DNA of 13,516 bases, taken from NCBI GenBank assembly GCA_039801225.1, contig JBDRUH010000043.1, positions 1-13,516 on the forward strand, read 5' to 3'. Shown here piece by piece: positions 6,001 through 12,000 of the stretch. Source of the DNA: a candidate division WOR-3 bacterium. GTDB lineage: Bacteria; Hydrothermota; Tepidihabitantia; Tepidihabitantales; Tepidihabitantaceae. Made by a program: the position numbers. Every line of letters starts with the position of its first letter. The stretch's first letter is position 1.

Positions 6001-9000
6001 AGGTAGTCTCCGGACTTGCCTGGATGGAAAGGATGTTTCTTGCCCAGGAACTCCTCAATCGGCTAACTGATACATTAGTACCTTCCTTGAGTGAAATTGC
6101 CACCTACTTCTCCGAGCATCGTGATCAGTTTACCTGGGGGTTAAAATTAAACCTTATGGTTCTACCCGATTCAGTTTTAGCTGAGCAGACACTTAATGAA
6201 CTCAAATCGGGTGGCAACTTCGTCCAACTGGCAAAAGAGCGGTCATTGGATACTTCAGTAATCAATCTTCCTGGCTACCCTACCCGAGGGATTGGGATGT
6301 CATTGGGATGGAGTTTGGCGGACGAAGAGATGGTATTTGACTTAGCGCCTGGTGCGGTGTCAAAAGTGATTCCCACGCCGGTTGGTTATCAGTTGGTGAA
6401 GGTTGTGGATAAGAAACGGATTACCGATAGCCCTTCACTTAACGAGATGACCCAGTTTTATATTTCCGAGGCGCTCAAAGCCCAAAAACGCCAGTTGGTA
6501 ATGAACCGCCTCTTAGACAGTTTACGCCAGAGTAAGAAAATCGTGTTAAAGCCCGAAGCCTATCAGAAACGACAATGACAGTAAGGGGAAGGTTTTTGGC
6601 TTTTGGTTTTTGGCTTTTGGTTTTTGGCTTTTGGCTTTCGGCTTTTGCTAATATTGCCGACCGGATTGTGGCGGTTGTCGGCGATAAGATAATCCTAAAG
6701 AGTGAAGTGGAACAACTTGTGACTTTCGTCCGACTGTCAACTGGGGATACATTGACTCCTGATTCAATTCTTCAAGAAGAGGCGCGGCGTCGTCTTATTG
6801 ACGAGGCGCTGCTCCAGACGGAGGCAATCCGGGAGTCGGTAGAAGTGGGTCGGGATGAGATTGCAACCGAGGTGGCAAAAAGCATCGCCTCACTAAAAGA
6901 GCGATTTGAGTCGGAAGAGGAGTTTGCCGCAGCGCTGGGCGAGGAGGGGCTTTCAGAAAAGATGCTCAAGGAGCGGATTGGTGAGGAGGTGCGAAAGAAT
7001 CTTTTAGCCCGACGACTCTTAGAAAAAAAGGGACTGATGCAGATTTATATCTCGCCCGCTGAGGCGGAACAGTTTTATAATGAGCATAAGGATTCCATCG
7101 CTTTTCTGCCCGGTAGAGTTTCCTTAGCCCATATCCTCATTCCTATTACACCATCAGAATCGGCCGAGGCTGAGGTCCAGCGTCGAGCCTGGGAGGTAAT
7201 TGACCTTCTCTCCCGTGGTGGCGATTTTGCTACCTTAGCCCGCTCCTTTTCCGACGACCCGAAAACCAAAGAGAGGGGCGGGGACTGGGGGTTTAGAAAC
7301 GAGGAGGAAATTCCTCTTGATCTAGGGATGGTTCTAACCCAACTTAAACCCGGGCAAATCTCACCCCCCTTCCGCACTCAAGATGGCTATCTCATCGCTA
7401 AACTTGAAGCGCGGGAAAAAAAGCGGTGGCACTTCCGAACGATTCTTTTCTCCCTGAAAACAACTCACACCGACACCGTTCGTGCCCGTCGGCTCGCCCT
7501 GTCAGTAAAAAATAAAGCGCTCAGCGGCGTTCCTTTTGACTCACTGGCGAAACTATACTCCGCCGACCCTGAGAGCAAAAAATCGGGCGGTTATCTCGGG
7601 CAGTTTTTTCTTGAAGGTTTGACCCCGCCCTTTGATAAGGTGATTGCCGGAATGGACTCCGGAGATATCAGCGACCCGGTCCTTTCTGAGCACGGCTTCC
7701 ACATCATCAAACTCCTCGCCAAAGAGCCAGCACGAACCCTTAGTTTCCTGGAAATCCAGGATGCTATCCGGAACTACCTATACCAAGAGCGGTTTACCGA
7801 GCGTTTGCGCCAGTATCTTGACCGAATTGAGCGAACGGTCTATGTGGAGATTAAAAAAAACGACAATTAATTTTTTCTTGACTTACTTTCTAAATAATAG
7901 ATAATAACAGCAAAAGGAGGCTTTATGCAAAAAGGCACACTGTTTGTTATTATCGGACTGTTATTCTCACTGGGCTTCAGTCTGGAACTCCGTTTTAGCG
8001 GTCCTTCGCCAGTTTATGATGGCGGTACCCCGATTGATGTTGGCAACTACGGAGCACCGGTGATAGCCGACTGGAACGGCGATGGCAATAAAGACCTCAT
8101 CTGCGGTCAATTCACCAATGGCAAAATCCGGTATTACGAAAATATCGGCGCCGACACCGCGCCGGTTTTTAATGGGTTTGAGTTCCTTAAAGCGGATGGA
8201 GTGGAGATTGAACTCCCTTATGGTTGATGTGTTGGTTCTACTCCACAGGTTGTGGATTGGAACTCTGATGGTGAGTTAGATGTCGTTTCTGGTGACCGCG
8301 AGGGCTATTTCAATGTCTTCATCCGGCAGGGGGGTGAACTTACCGGCTACTATCAATACAAACTTATGGATTCCACCGTTCTTAAGGTTGACGCCAACTC
8401 CCATCCGGCGGTCATCGACTGGAACGGTGATGGTAAAAAGGACTTAATCCTCGGTTCCCAGACCGGCTATATCTACTTCTACCCCAACCAGACAAGCGAT
8501 ACCTGGCCGATGTTTCAGGACTACTCTTATCTGGAGGTCCGTGGTTCGCCCATCAACCGTTATCGGGTAAACCCATACATATTTGACCTTGACCGCGACA
8601 CCATTTATGACTTAATCTGCGGTGCCGATGATGGCTATATCCTTTTTTATAAAAATGTCGGCACTAACGCTACGCCGGTTTTTCTCTTCCCGGAGACCCT
8701 GAGAGCCACTGACGAAACACCGATTCAGCCCAGCCCAACCTCCTATGGCTCGCGCTGCGCCTTCGGCTATTGGAACTCCGATACCCTTCCCGACTTTCTC
8801 CTCTCGGGTTATGACGGCACCGTGGACTTATACTTAGGAACTTCATTGGTCGGCACCGAAGAACCTCTTTCCACCTTAGAGGTTTCTTGCCGGCTGTCGG
8901 TTACCCCAATACCCGGAAGACCACCAGTTCGCATTCAGTTTAGTCCGGTTCTCCCTCAGGAGGTACAGCTAATAATCACCGATGTTTCCGGAAGGAAGGT

Positions 9001-12000
9001 TCGCACCGTTATCCTTTCACCTTGCCAAAGTGAGTTTGTCTGGAATGGGATAACTGACCAGGGAACCAAGGCGAATTCCGGTGTTTACTTTTGTGGGATA
9101 AAGCGCCCCTTAAACCGAAGCGAAAAAAACGGTGGAGGTAATAGCCCAGTTTGGACGACGAGAATTGTTTTAGAGAAGTGAAATTATTAACCCGGAGGTG
9201 TCTGTAAGGCTGAGTTAAATTATATAAAACAAAAAGAGCGTAGTGATTAAACTTTCTTAAGAGGATAGATTTCGCCAGAAGTTTTAAATCCACCTAAATT
9301 GACAACCGCTGATTTATATTCTAAAATTCTTTAACTTGTTTACACTTTCCGTTAATATTGACCATATTGCCACTTTGCGTCAGGCGCGGCGGGAAAACTT
9401 TCCCGACCCGGTGCAAGCCGCCGCGTTGGTGGAATTGGCTGGTGCCGATGGAATTACCGTTCATCTGCGTCAGGACCGCCGGCACATCAATGAGCGGGAT
9501 GTGAAACTTCTCCGTCAGACAATAAAGACTGAACTTACTGTAGAGATGGCAGCAACACCGGAGATGGTTCAATTTGCCCGGATAGTAAAACCCGACCAGG
9601 TGACATTTGTTCCGGAGTTGACCACCGAGGTAACCACAACTCAAGGGCTGAATATCAAAAAGAAGAGGGATGAGTTAAAACGGGCAACTGAAGGTTTGAG
9701 AAAAGTTGGGGTACGGGTATGCATTTTTGTTGAACCGGACCCGGAACAGGTCAACCTGGCGGCGAAAATTGGTGCCCAGGCGGTGGAGTTGAATACCGAC
9801 AGGTATAACAAAGAGCCGAAGAGCCGGGATTATCATCTAGACCGGTTGACGGTTGCCTCTCAGACGGCAAGGGAGGCGGGACTGATTGTCAATGTCGGTC
9901 ACGGTTTGGATTATTTGAATGTTGTGCCCATCTTAGAACGGAAAATCGCTCAAGGGTTCTCCATCGGTTTTGCGATTGTTGCCCGGGCGGTCTTTGTTGG
10001 CCTGCGCGAGGCGGTGGCAGAGATGAAACATATTCTGGAGGTGTTTTCTTGAGAGGCGCGAGGATAAAACTTGCTATCTGGCTGGTGGTTTTTGTCATTG
10101 CCGGGGTTGTGCTCTGGCCCAGTTTTCAGTTATATGTCCTGTTACCGAAACAGGAACGAGCACTCCGGTACCGGCTTGCCCAAGCGACAACCGCGGAGGA
10201 GAGCACCGCAGTTCTAACCGAAATCAGTGAGTTCAACCGGCACAAGGCGGCACTTTATGAGAAGCGCATCGTTCATCTCGGACTTGACCTGGTTGGTGGA
10301 ATGCATGTTGTTTTGGATGTTGACCGGACGAAGTTGAGTGAAGAGGAGTCCCGACGGGCACCAGATTTAGCCCTGGAGGTAATTAGGAATCGGATTGACC
10401 AGTTCGGGGTTTTTGAGCCGACAATTCAGAAAACCGACAAAGGGCGAATCCTGGTGCAGTTGCCGGGTGTGGACCGGGACCGGGCGCTCAATATCATCAA
10501 ACAGCCCGCCCATCTCACCTTCCATCTTGTGGAAGAGAAGGCAAAGGTTTACGATGCCCTTAAGACAATTGATGAGCATCTGGTGACTAAGGGGATCGCC
10601 AAGGGACCGGCGGCGTTGGACACAATTCAACCAATTGACACCACTTTGGGTAAAGAGGCGCCACCCGGCAGCCTGCTCAGTTACATCCGGGGCGAAGGTG
10701 ATGAGTTGGACCTGTTAATTGCCATTGATGATACCGCTGATTTCAAGAGACTTTTGAATCAGGGAAGGGAGTTCTGGCCTGAGGGATACGAGTTTCAGTT
10801 CGGTCCGGGAGAGAGTGAGGAGTATGGTAAGGTGGTAAGGCTCTATCTTTTAAAGAGCGAGCCGGAACTTTTCGGCACCCGGCTGCGCCGGGCAGAGCCA
10901 GCGATTTACCAGGGGGCAGAACTGGAGCGAACAAACACCTGGGTGGTGAATTTTGAACTGGACCGGGAGGGGGCAACAAAGTTTGCCCAGGTTACCGGTA
11001 GGAATGTGGGCAGGCGGCTGGCGATAGTTTTAGACGGTGTGGTGCGTTCAGCACCGCGGATTCAGGAACGGATTCCCAATGGACGGGGGCAGATTACGAT
11101 GAATGACCGGAAGGGCGACAAGGCACGCGATTTGGCGATTGTCTTAAACTCCGGGGCGTTGCCGGCACCGGTGCAGGTGGTTGAGGAGCGGTCAATCGGT
11201 GCTTCCCTCGGTGCCGATGCGATTCGGCGTGGACTCATTGCCAGTGCGGTTGGTGCGCTGGTGGTGGTGTTGTTTATGCTCATCTATTATCGCATTGGCG
11301 GGCTACTTGCTGACCTGGCACTGATATTTAATATCTTTTTACTATTGGCGGTCCTGGCAGCGCTGCGGGCAACATTAACTCTGCCTGGACTCGCCGGTAT
11401 TGCGCTGACGATTGGTATGGCGGTAGATGCCAATGTCCTGGTATTTGAGCGGATTCGGGAGGAGTTGCGCGCGGGCAAGACGCCGATGGCGGCGGTTGAT
11501 ACCGGTTACTCCCGGGCGCTGACCACAATCATTGATGCCAATGCCACCACCATCATCACCGCCATCGCCCTTTACTTCATCGGCTCAGGTCCGGTGCGGG
11601 GCTTTGCCATCACCCTTACGGTGGGGTTAATCATCAATGTCCTGACCGCAGTATTTTTGACCCGATTTGTTTTTGACTGGTTCCTTGCCCGTTTTGAAGT
11701 TAAAACCTTGAGGATTTAAGAATTATGAGACTATTTGGCGAGACCAATATACCTTTTGTTTTTAAACGGCGGCTATTTTTTATAATCTCTGCGGCTCTTG
11801 TTGGAGTGAGCATTATTGCAGTTGTGGTAAAGGGGTTCCGTTATGGAGTGGACTTCACCGGTGGCGGATTGATTCAGGTCCGTTTTTCCCGACCGGTAAA
11901 GATTGATGCGGTGCGGGCGGCACTGACCGCAATTGGTGAAGCCGGTGCATCAATTCAAGAGACCGAGACCGGTGACTTTCTTATCCGGGTGAAGCCCAGC

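Follow-up and report, generated by a model that had tools for sequence, protein, structure and literature searches.

A gene cut at an in-frame TGA in a candidate division WOR-3 bacterium most likely encodes a secreted five-bladed FG-GAP propeller with a selenocysteine-cysteine pair

Main finding

Databases show two pieces where there is most likely a single gene, whose product would be a secreted five-bladed propeller with a selenocysteine (Sec)-cysteine pair. We read the protein as a real, undescribed, surface-exposed selenoprotein. Our probability that it is a genuine selenoprotein and that its U-C loop is the functional site is about 0.85. The internal UGA (codon 101) would be decoded as Sec through the standard bacterial SelB/SECIS route, and the product would be exported through an N-terminal signal peptide. 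It is predicted to fold as a closed five-bladed propeller of FG-GAP repeats, with the Sec101-Cys102 pair in the loop that leads into blade 2's innermost strand. Type IX secretion, by way of the Ig-like C-terminal tail, would probably bring it to the cell surface.

The core of the survey's finding, an exported FG-GAP propeller with Sec at codon 101 that is widespread and cut at its TGA, was supported by all tests run. The protein would found a bacterial selenoprotein family that is widespread and that we did not find described in print. A term search of five selenoproteome papers and one supplement returned no mention of the family, as the survey had also reported for its own sources. A term search of the Haft preprint (10.1101/2022.07.06.499078) gave no match to FG-GAP, VCBS, propeller or integrin.

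Gene and reading frame

The window, the whole stretch of 13,516 nucleotides that was analysed, contains the following features of the gene.

7915..7920, + strand: Shine-Dalgarno-like AGGAGG, 4 nt upstream of the ATG, read directly from the sequence
7925..9181, + strand: candidate selenoprotein gene, 418 codons plus a terminal TGA stop, with the TGA at codon 101 read as Sec
8225..8227, + strand: TGA, codon 101, read as Sec; same column in 62/62 distinct phylum homologues
8228..8230, + strand: TGT, Cys102, invariant partner of Sec101; column 102 is Cys or Sec in 139/143 family rows
8252..9181, + strand: 309-aa fragment of public gene calls, from ORF calling, with a GTG start past the TGA
9179..9181, + strand: terminal TGA, an ordinary stop with no hairpin after it

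With translation table 11, two ORFs were called, 7925-8227 (100 aa) and 8252-9181 (309 aa, GTG start). When the TGA at 8225-8227 was read through, a single 418-aa frame resulted, ending at the second TGA (9179-9181); ORF calling and translation thus agreed with the earlier description of a 418-aa frame with Sec at codon 101. The product of 7925-9181 consists of a signal peptide, five FG-GAP repeats and the Ig-like tail. The 309-aa fragment has no signal peptide, no blade 1 and no ring-closing strand. Since both blade 1 and that strand are encoded before the TGA, each half falls short of a complete domain. We obtained the same count of database matches as the survey: 119 of the 120 best, P0002 among them, were fragments of 271-309 aa that begin past the TGA. 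No RNA run was listed as containing the gene.

No hairpin was found 3′ of the terminal TGA (60 nt from the stop, MFE -3.2 kcal/mol). TGA closes 5 of the 11 genes in the window, including this one, and no other gene in the window has an in-frame TGA. This argues against a general reassignment of TGA.

Fold, domains and export

7925..7987, + strand: predicted Sec-type signal peptide, residues ~1-21, Lys3 followed by hydrophobic LFVIIGLLFSLGF, judged by eye
7988..8851, + strand: five-bladed propeller of FG-GAP repeats, residues ~22-309, from Pfam, the model and structural matches
8069..8095, + strand: acidic loop DWNGDGNKD of blade 1, residues 49-57, a Ca-binding-type FG-GAP loop
8255-8281, 8417-8443, 8585-8611 and 8768-8794, + strand: loops equivalent to the acidic loop of blade 1
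8882..9178, + strand: C-terminal Ig-like beta-sandwich (FlgD_ig, Pfam PF13860, 27.9 bits)

Pfam matched FG-GAP_3 (1.9e-14), and PF13517 (FG-GAP / VCBS) exceeded its gathering score in four stretches (54.4 bits vs 26.9). FlgD_ig was barely above its cut-off (2.4e-6, 27.9 bits vs 27). As noted before, no NCBIfam family rose above cut-off, with three weak rows at 13-16 bits. The Asp columns 53, 57, 115, 119, 165, 173, 225, 229, 286 and 290 were invariant in the 62 distinct phylum sequences.

The structure model, computed with Cys substituted for Sec, was a closed five-bladed propeller (pLDDT 89). The signal-peptide region formed a helix at residues 5-14 with low pLDDT; the N-termini of orthologues look similar. 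The 50 best VIA matches were all five-bladed propellers (Z 14.7-19.0, model range 21-309). Together with blade 5, strand 23-29 appears to complete the ring in the model. The Sec101-Cys102 dyad stands just ahead of blade 2's innermost strand. A loop placed in this way lies at the mouth of the central cavity in propeller enzymes, and from the strand order in the model we infer that position for the dyad. A seven-bladed integrin-type propeller was considered and rejected, given five repeats, five-bladed best matches and TM-scores of 0.30-0.41 to integrin heads; the best Foldseek matches, integrin alpha, CRTAC1 and BBSome propellers, all fell in this TM range.

The Ig-like tail is probably a sorting tail for type IX secretion, to judge from sequence matches. 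PF18962 is precomputed for many homologues, and an FlgD_ig-type tail occurs in 9 other large open frames of the genome. Among components of the secretion system, a SprA homologue scored 443 bits, and PorV reached just 65.7 bits where the cut-off is 250.

The Sec-Cys pair and its relatives

Outside the repeat scaffold, only columns 102 (Cys/Sec) and 104 (Gly) are conserved. Cys directly follows the TGA in all 62 distinct phylum homologues, forming a U-C dyad. Elsewhere the Sec position varies by clade: 101 (U-C), 102 (G-U-L-G) or 103 (C-U). Two Victivallales relatives have G-C-U-G, and seven Cys forms (mostly Pirellulales), together with P0270, have a C-x-x-C (G-C-[LM]-G-C). G-U-L-G and G-C-L-G fall in one clade with 100% local support, an exchange of Sec and Cys at column 102. 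Generic FG-GAP proteins of the phylum have I-D-V-G in place of the family's U-C-x-G, and a Sec-less tandem paralogue (L110) has G-E-T-T-G.

The survey had taken the Cys of G-C-[LM]-G as the counterpart of Sec101. In ungapped BLAST alignments and in an independent MAFFT alignment, this Cys lies under Cys102 instead, and the non-Sec relatives in other phyla have Gly (once Ala) under Sec101. Among these relatives we found no clear Cys counterpart of Sec101; in one doubtful, divergent row (L156, F-A-C-A-H-R) the aligned Cys may lie under column 101. The absence of a clear counterpart is unusual among selenoproteins. A Cys homologue in the Sec column is usual but not obligatory: the deep-Sep paper cites glycine reductase selenoprotein A as a case with no Cys homologues.

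What the pair does can be approached by analogy. U-C, C-U and C-x-x-C motifs are typical of redox dichalcogenide centres, and the pair may be a redox-active selenenylsulfide/selenol-thiol centre for an extracellular substrate, to which we give roughly even odds. The flanks of family members held no conserved neighbour gene that would indicate the substrate or electron donor.

A less probable, though still plausible, alternative is a selenoprotein whose Sec-Cys pair binds rather than catalyses redox reactions. It could act as a soft ligand for metals or metalloids (Hg, As, Cu, Ni, Fe), or else as a cell-surface carrier arm loaded with sulfur or selenium in persulfide or selenosulfide form. The single-chalcogen forms G-C-L-G and G-U-L-G make stable clades, which implies that one nucleophile is enough in them. 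Gly flanks the residue (G-U-C-x-G, G-G-C-G-A) as it does in carrier arms, of which the GGCGG of SoxY is an example. The named relatives belong to groups that we take to be anaerobes from sediments, springs and groundwater, and the lack of a conserved electron-donor partner beside the gene fits binding as well. CU/UC dipeptides have also been tied to organometallic chemistry through a MerB-like selenoprotein, according to one preprint (10.1101/2022.07.06.499078). Against binding, the C-x-x-C and C-U variants suit redox centres at least equally well, and the flanks showed no genes for metal handling or sulfur oxidation.

Conservation of the TGA and the Sec machinery

In the order, a search at E<=1e-20 gave 51 rows from 66 genomes, 50 of them with exactly one TGA; the single row without it spans residues 8-99 only. 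The survey's count of 50 therefore stands, with 51 rather than 55 as the total. For the phylum (WOR-3), its figure was obtained again exactly: 93 of 106 rows at E<=1e-15 from 272 genomes had exactly one TGA. The TGA occupied the same column in 30/30 order loci and in all 62 distinct phylum sequences (31-62% identity), which extends an earlier 12 of 12 orthologs. The stop in this column was always TGA, never TAA or TAG. In other phyla, 68 of 87 rows had a TGA within the loop. In a second family (f14), a hand count from the phylum search gave a TGA in 34/38 rows, and the 25 of 25 reported previously was not reproduced; the four rows without TGA are generic FG-GAP proteins with open frames of ~1,190-1,220 aa.

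As described before, the genome has SelA (570 bits), SelB (381 bits), SelD and tRNA-Sec. We found SelD twice, one copy with a TGA. By hand count, SelA was present in 52/58 phylum genomes with the TGA form vs 70/214 without it. Six of the 58 had no SelA match at E<=1e-30. Five of these were tested (G002 was left out), and four hold SelB, tRNA-Sec and/or pieces of SelA truncated at contig ends. A TGA-gene relative without SelA had been raised as a caveat, and these four largely explain it; in G223 (87% complete) no clear Sec component was found.

A SECIS-like hairpin after the TGA

8234..8264, + strand: SECIS-like hairpin of 13 pairs and a single C-U mismatch (MFE -15 kcal/mol, z -2.75)
8242-8246 paired with 8252-8256, + strand: invariant hairpin core, from pair counts
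8248..8250, + strand: apical loop GGU, +24..+26 from the U of UGA

The GGU loop lies where the survey placed it, but the helix begins at +10/+11, 6-7 nt past the UGA, rather than after 9 nt. Two of 200 shuffles folded equally well. The core had been credited to 26 of 30 sequences; its conservation was confirmed, and we found the 5-bp core in 30/30 subfamily-A sequences. Subfamily B has a different stem at the same place (GUCGC/GCGAC, 95.8% of cells paired), and G25 and U26 of the apical loop do not vary in either subfamily. The stem of subfamily C is different again and is shifted 3 nt downstream. No Rfam family matches the hairpin.

Synonymous sites in subfamily A were fixed at codons 107 (CCA 33/34), 108 (CAG 29/29) and 110 (GTG 34/34); adjoining four-fold codons had an entropy of 1.5-2 bits. 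Synonymous differences were at their minimum in the 9-codon window from codon 105 for subfamily A (a tie for lowest among 339 windows) and, for the remaining phylum sequences, in the one from codon 107 (the lowest of 307). Covariation was thin, with one compensatory pair per subfamily: pair 23-27 in A (A-U in 17, G-C in 5, unpaired in 8) and pair 19-33 in B (G-C in 17, A-U in 9, G-U in 1). Pairs changed on both sides were no more numerous than in shuffles in either subfamily. Since the hairpin lies within codons of the conserved FG-GAP motif P-Q-V-V-D-W-N, its conservation is partly protein-driven.

Under a strict rule (at least 5 pairs; a loop of 3-7 nt containing GU and starting at +20..33), the hairpin was found in 90/116 U-C forms, 4/19 sequences without TGA and 133/2,320 shuffles. 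Plain folding energy failed to separate the forms (mean -11.95 for U-C vs -10.83 kcal/mol for Cys-only). The Sec-less paralogue L110 retains an intact hairpin. A similar hairpin is present in the SelD(U) gene of this bacterium; its loop, AGUUG, lies at +26..30.

Could the UGA be read through without Sec, by a near-cognate tRNA (Trp, Cys, Arg) or another recoding signal, with the hairpin merely stimulating read-through? The intact hairpin of the Sec-less L110 would agree with this. We nevertheless consider it very improbable. The hairpin position and GU loop fit bacterial SECIS geometry and the SelD(U) hairpin, and the TGA form is almost confined to genomes with SelA. An adjacent conserved Cys and Sec/Cys exchange at column 102 would be expected if the residue is Sec, but not if it is Trp or Arg.

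Still more improbable is a true stop, with a secreted peptide of 100 aa and a cytoplasmic FG-GAP protein of 309 aa as the products of two genes or of one gene in decay. In its favour, TGA is an ordinary stop in this genome, a GTG stands 24 nt downstream and nearly all of the best database matches begin past the TGA. Against it, the stop is invariably TGA and falls in frame midway through blade 2, stop-free relatives read straight across the same loop, the 309-aa piece is missing the parts listed above, the TGA form tracks SelA, and in a decaying gene one column would not persist over such a range of identity.

Comparison with known systems

The selenoprotein reading can be set beside several known systems. 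In E. coli fdhF the SECIS is a hairpin within the coding region just past the UGA, and its apical loop contains G and U. The hairpin found here also fits the general bacterial pattern, in which a stem-loop immediately past the UGA carries G/U in its apical loop at roughly +16 to +37. The hairpin described here shares the G/U apical loop ~23-26 nt from the U of UGA but differs in sequence, and its SECIS role is putative.

Integrin alpha heads and CRTAC1 (PF13517, PF01839) have the same D-x-N-x-D-G-x-x-D loops and belong to the same repeat sequence family; they lack Sec and are built of seven or eight blades, whereas this ring has five. Five-bladed propeller enzymes of GH43, GH62, GH32 and GH130 have their active sites in the central cavity. 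They resemble our model in ring geometry (Z 14.7-19.0, rmsd ~3-4 Å, 230-257 residues aligned), but at 6-14% identity the likeness is geometric only and membership is not claimed. PQQ-dependent methanol dehydrogenase is a periplasmic Ca propeller with a vicinal Cys-Cys disulfide at its active site. Like it, the protein described here would be an exported propeller with Ca-binding-type loops and an adjacent-residue dichalcogenide, but methanol dehydrogenase has eight W-motif blades, the PQQ cofactor and no Sec. The present protein has five FG-GAP blades and shows no sign of a cofactor.

Mammalian thioredoxin reductase carries a Gly-Cys-Sec-Gly redox centre on a flexible C-terminal tail. Both proteins have Gly-flanked adjacent Cys and Sec, so that a vicinal selenenylsulfide is possible. 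Here, however, the order is mostly U-C, the motif is in an internal propeller loop, the protein is exported and there is no flavin/NADPH domain. The likeness is one of chemistry, with no relation in sequence or fold, and a thioredoxin-reductase-like GCUG centre was rejected on the internal motif, the U-C order and the lack of a flavoprotein domain.

SaoL, described in the same Haft preprint (10.1101/2022.07.06.499078), is a MerB-like, cytoplasmic selenoprotein in a nine-gene neighbourhood. Its fold and context differ from those of the propeller family, which has no conserved neighbourhood. What SaoL and the other CU/UC selenoproteins of that preprint share with the propeller family is database truncation at a Cys-Sec dipeptide and recognition by read-through and conservation.

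Gene structure and domains

We put at about 85% the probability that the gene at 7925-9181 belongs to a real and apparently undescribed selenoprotein family. Under translation table 11 the gene appears as two ORFs in the same frame, and readthrough of the TGA that ends the first joins them into one frame of 418 residues.

4 nt 5′ of the ATG, + strand: Shine-Dalgarno-like AGGAGG, read from the sequence
7925-8227, + strand: first ORF (100 aa)
8225-8227, + strand: TGA, codon 101, read as Sec101 and followed by Cys102
8234-8264, + strand: hairpin, with apical loop GGU at 8248-8250 (+24..26 from the UGA)
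8252-9181, + strand: second ORF (309 aa, GTG start)
9179-9181, + strand: terminal stop, a second TGA

In the 418-aa protein, Pfam matched FG-GAP_3 over four stretches with 54.4 bits, and FlgD_ig close to the C-terminus with 27.9 bits (cut-off 27); NCBIfam gave no match near any cut-off. Judged by eye, a Sec-type signal peptide seems to stand at the N-terminus, where Lys3 is followed by LFVIIGLLFSLGF. The Ig-like C-terminal tail is also present in nine other large open frames of the same genome, and many homologues carry the type-IX sorting domain PF18962. The genome encodes a SprA homologue (443 bits); matches to PorV were weak only. Close relatives are publicly named "FG-GAP-like repeat-containing", "VCBS repeat-containing", "T9SS type A sorting domain-containing" or "hypothetical".

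Conservation of the in-frame TGA

Among the 66 genomes of the order (E ≤ 1e-20), matches were found in 34, giving 51 rows. Exactly one TGA was present in 50 of these, and the sole row without it spans residues 8-99 only. The search of the 272 genomes of the phylum (E ≤ 1e-15) gave 106 rows in 61 genomes, 93 of them with one TGA. The other 13 were partial pieces or matches within long generic FG-GAP frames (about 580-1,220 aa); those retrieved from the long frames read I-D-V-G at the position of the family's U-C-x-G. Genes of the TGA form occur in 58 of the 272 genomes, with one to four copies in each.

Genes cut out at 30 loci of the order and 40 further places gave 62 distinct sequences, with 31-62% identity to that of the window. 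In all 62 the TGA occupies one column and Cys comes next (x-U-C-[VMQIT]-G), and TAA or TAG was never seen at that column among them. A paralogue without the TGA in the same class (L078, G176:C39:1800-3300) reads V-E-C-Y-G, with Glu under Sec101 and Cys102 kept.

TGA as a stop codon and the Sec machinery

TGA is not reassigned in the host organism. It ends 5 of the 11 genes in the window, including the gene under study, and none of the others has an in-frame TGA. The genome (1.5 Mb, 72 contigs, 88.8% complete) carries SelA (570 bits), SelB (381 bits), two SelD and a tRNA-Sec with anticodon TCA. One selD has an in-frame TGA and directly adjoins selB, and the other is stop-free and lies at a contig start (loci L017, G000:C5:23743-27651, and L016, G000:C39:1-2436).

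SelA was detected in 122 of the 272 genomes of the phylum. By hand count, SelA accompanied the TGA form in 52 of 58 genomes and was present in 70 of the 214 genomes without that form. We examined five of the six TGA-form genomes without a SelA match in this search, the sixth being G002 (76% complete). SelB and tRNA-Sec were found in G065 (92% complete), a SelA fragment at a contig end with SelB and tRNA-Sec in G063, and tRNA-Sec in G210; the search of G223 (87% complete) found no clear Sec component. The fifth, G198 (a single contig, 90% complete), retains the TGA form and has a C-terminal SelA fragment (residues 341-454) directly upstream of an intact selB (G198:C1:1645576-1647900), with no tRNA-Sec above the gathering score. 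Its partial set could be the result of assembly frameshifts or of a decaying Sec system.

An RNA hairpin after the UGA

Within the 45 nt from the UGA, the hairpin had a minimum free energy of -15 kcal/mol (z -2.75), and equally good folds arose in 2 of 200 shuffles. In the 30 sequences of subfamily A (alignment A2), five core pairs are invariant and the next pair outward is G-C in 24; the loop-closing pair is A-U in 17 and G-C in 5, and is unpaired in 8.

Because the hairpin overlaps conserved codons, we examined synonymous sites. Pro107 is CCA in 33 of 34 cases, Gln108 CAG in 29 of 29 and Val110 GTG in 34 of 34. Four-fold codons nearby have an entropy of 1.5-2 bits, and Pro98 is CCA in only 3 of 45. 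In a scan of the whole gene in subfamily A, the 9-codon window from codon 105 was tied for the fewest synonymous differences among 339 windows, and in other sequences of the phylum the minimum was the window from codon 107, the lowest of 307.

A second subfamily (28 sequences, alignment A3) has other amino acids here (V-A-V-C-D) and another stem (GUCGC/GCGAC) at an equal distance. Paired cells make up 95.8% of this stem, in which one pair is G-C in 17 sequences, A-U in 9 and G-U in 1. G25 and U26 do not vary in either subfamily. A different stem again, shifted 3 nt further on, is found in a third subfamily (N-P-Q-V-V-D). The covariation is thin: each subfamily offers a single compensated pair. 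A similar hairpin, whose loop AGUUG lies at +26..30, is present in the SelD(U) gene from the genome of the window.

Plain folding energy did not discriminate, with means of -11.95 kcal/mol in U-C (Sec-Cys) forms and -10.83 in Cys-only relatives. A strict rule (a minimum of 5 pairs, with GU inside a 3-7-nt loop that starts at +20..33) does separate U-C forms, 90 of 116, from forms without the TGA, 4 of 19; the rate in shuffles was 133 of 2,320. It picked out none of the seven forms with Sec at another column, and hairpins in another register were visible for at least the two C-U forms and L135 among these seven. A search of Rfam around the TGA matched no family. The search of sequencing runs for the gene listed no RNA run, and its best row (share 0.14) is probably DNA.

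In an Aegiribacteria genome there is a tandem pair (L110, near 3001-4164 and downstream). The site is G-U-C-T-G in one copy and G-E-T-T-G in the other, a close paralogue that holds no Sec or Cys there and still retains the downstream hairpin base for base.

Position of Sec in the wider family

We scanned one genome per species for relatives and found 427, the best 80 loci of which gave 87 gene copies. These loci are from WOR-3 (Stahlbacteria), Fermentibacterota, Planctomycetota, Verrucomicrobiota, Lentisphaerota, Nitrospirota, Gemmatimonadota, KSB1, Sumerlaeota, Thermodesulfobacteriota, Fibrobacterota and others. The dyad is U-C in 61 of the 87 copies. Fifteen are x-C without the TGA, mostly G-C-[LM]-G, and seven of them read G-C-[LM]-G-C (C-x-x-C). 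Sec lies one column later in five (G-U-[LM]-G and similar), two read G-C-U-G, and four are neither Sec nor Cys forms.

The survey had taken the G-C-[LM]-G forms of other phyla as Cys counterparts of Sec101. These forms are real, but they are not replacements of Sec101 by Cys: in ungapped BLAST alignments their Cys lies under Cys102, and Gly (once Ala) lies under Sec101. A MAFFT alignment of 143 rows (after removal of rows with E > 1e-35 to the query and of identical sequences) agreed on the columns. In it, Cys or Sec is at column 102 in 139 of 143 rows, and columns 102 and Gly104 are the only conserved ones outside the repeat scaffold. With this correction of the columns, the survey's observation was confirmed and its interpretation as a selenoprotein is supported.

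The FastTree tree has a clade of 90 rows (WOR-3, Fermentibacterota and allies), U-C in 89, and a second clade of 53 rows with mixed forms. A group of 14 with 100% local support contains 12 G-C-x-G and 2 G-U-x-G forms, a true Sec/Cys exchange at column 102. The two C-U forms are placed among U-C forms.

The Gly codons of the Cys forms under Sec101 are GGA in 2 of 15 cases, which is no enrichment, so there is no sign of a recent change from UGA to GGA. A word search biased towards C-C (query residues 30-130 with Cys at 101) found no C-C form: 11 of its 12 matches were C-terminal fragments matching by repeat, and the one full-length match reads E-G-C-L-G-C. The divergent L156 (F-A-C-A-H-R) may have Cys under column 101. 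In a profile search of 1.84 billion representatives, almost all of the best 150 matches were long multi-repeat FG-GAP proteins, whose scores sum over repeats, and the search was of no use for Cys forms.

Two Victivallales loci (L140 and L157) have the dyad inverted to G-C-U-G and a longer spacer; in them the same hairpin with loop GGU lies some 6 nt more distant from the TGA. L142, L146, L152, L160-L163 and the database protein P0270 are Cys-only, mostly from Pirellulales (G-C-[LM]-G-C-F-P, C-x-x-C); P0270 has a dockerin domain (PF00404) in place of the Ig-like tail. On one contig of an unclassified bacterium (L102, 1-6884) there are five family members in a stretch of 6.9 kb, all U-C.

Predicted fold and site of the dyad

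An AlphaFold2 model on the 62-sequence alignment, with Cys in place of Sec, had pLDDT 89 and pTM 0.71. The best matches of Foldseek in the PDB were integrin alpha heads, CRTAC1 and BBSome propellers, at TM of only 0.30-0.41; a seven-bladed integrin-like fold, the only type it gave, was set aside for the five-bladed reading from an exhaustive VIA alignment against 48,161 chains. The best 50 rows of the latter were all five-bladed propellers (GH43, GH62, GH32, GH130 and similar), with Z of 14.7-19.0, 230-257 aligned residues in the model range 21-309 and 6-14% identity. Five acidic FG-GAP loops lie at residues 49-57, 111-119, 165-173, 221-229 and 282-290. The model is therefore a closed five-bladed ring of FG-GAP repeats.

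In the model the ring appears to be closed by strand 23-29 with blade 5. Blade 1 and the closing strand are encoded upstream of the TGA and so, like the signal peptide, are missing from the 309-aa database fragment. The model places Sec101-Cys102 in the loop that leads into strand 106-110, with which blade 2 begins; in the usual propeller topology this loop would lie at the mouth of the central cavity. In propeller enzymes the active sites are in such a cavity-side loop.

Gene neighbourhood

The selenoprotein gene is in an envelope-biogenesis stretch, between three PpiC/SurA-type genes and pdxJ-secDF.

1484-2536: 350-aa ORF, no Pfam family at E ≤ 1e-5
2555-7870, upstream: BamB/PQQ-like propeller gene and three consecutive PpiC/SurA-type rotamase genes
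10049-12630, downstream: pdxJ, secD, secF, pgpA

No conserved neighbour gene was found among the loci of the order or in the flanks of 110 loci. SurA was upstream in 8 of 29 loci of the order and PdxJ in none of the 29. When the flanking open frames of the 110 loci were clustered, no partner family was common to more than 23 loci; the 23-locus cluster was rejected, its coordinates being read as an antisense shadow of the gene itself.

Novelty and significance

A full-text literature search on selenoproteins with FG-GAP, VCBS, beta-propeller or WOR-3 returned only unrelated papers. In the available portions of the 2026 review (PMC13188914), the deep-Sep paper (PMC12013277, with its table of nine new families), the BSepDB paper (PMC13326102) and the 2022 review (PMC9312934), FG-GAP, VCBS, propeller and integrin are not mentioned; nor are they in the portion available of the Haft preprint (10.1101/2022.07.06.499078), as distinct from its journal version and subscription papers. 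The part available of one BSepDB supplement has no FG-GAP, VCBS, propeller, FlgD or T9SS. Methods that pair Cys with TGA would match this family's TGA to Gly and then drop it, a blind spot of a kind that the deep-Sep authors acknowledge in the text available (PMC12013277).

All 119 close database entries are headless fragments, so that selenoproteins are undercounted in these phyla. Predictions of structure and function are also misled by such entries. There are few selenoproteins, and the folds of most are thioredoxin-like or hold a metal cofactor. The exported propeller is probably displayed at the cell surface and would give selenium a new setting, both structural and cellular. The decoding mechanism is standard; the fold and cellular setting are new, and the position of Sec behaves unusually. 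Its shift among three adjacent columns is a natural experiment on the choice of Sec over Cys.

Possible functions

In this family an exported propeller holds a conserved chalcogen at column 102 and, usually, a second one as Sec101. The main rival to redox catalysis is that the protein binds or carries a metal, a metalloid or sulfane sulfur. Nothing in the family data tells these two roles apart, and we regard binding or carriage as possible at well below even odds.

A wider reading is possible but less likely than not. The proteins would be a type-IX-secreted family of surface selenoenzymes, the first on a beta-propeller, in which selenium is irreplaceable by sulfur at 101 and Sec has settled, by clade, at three neighbouring positions of one loop. 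With multiple copies, up to five in tandem, the family may be more common than any other selenoprotein in WOR-3 and Fermentibacterota. Its members would carry out an extracellular chalcogen chemistry so far ascribed to no enzyme, for example on polysulfide, elemental sulfur or selenium, or metalloids at the surface of anaerobes.

For the dyad itself we lean, at about even odds, towards redox chemistry, in which Sec101-Cys102 would form a reversible selenenylsulfide and act on an extracellular substrate. Redox-active dichalcogenide centres have motifs such as U-C, C-U and C-x-x-C. This reading is favoured because of these motifs and because the nearest chemical analogue of the family's dyad is the G-C-U-G of thioredoxin reductase.
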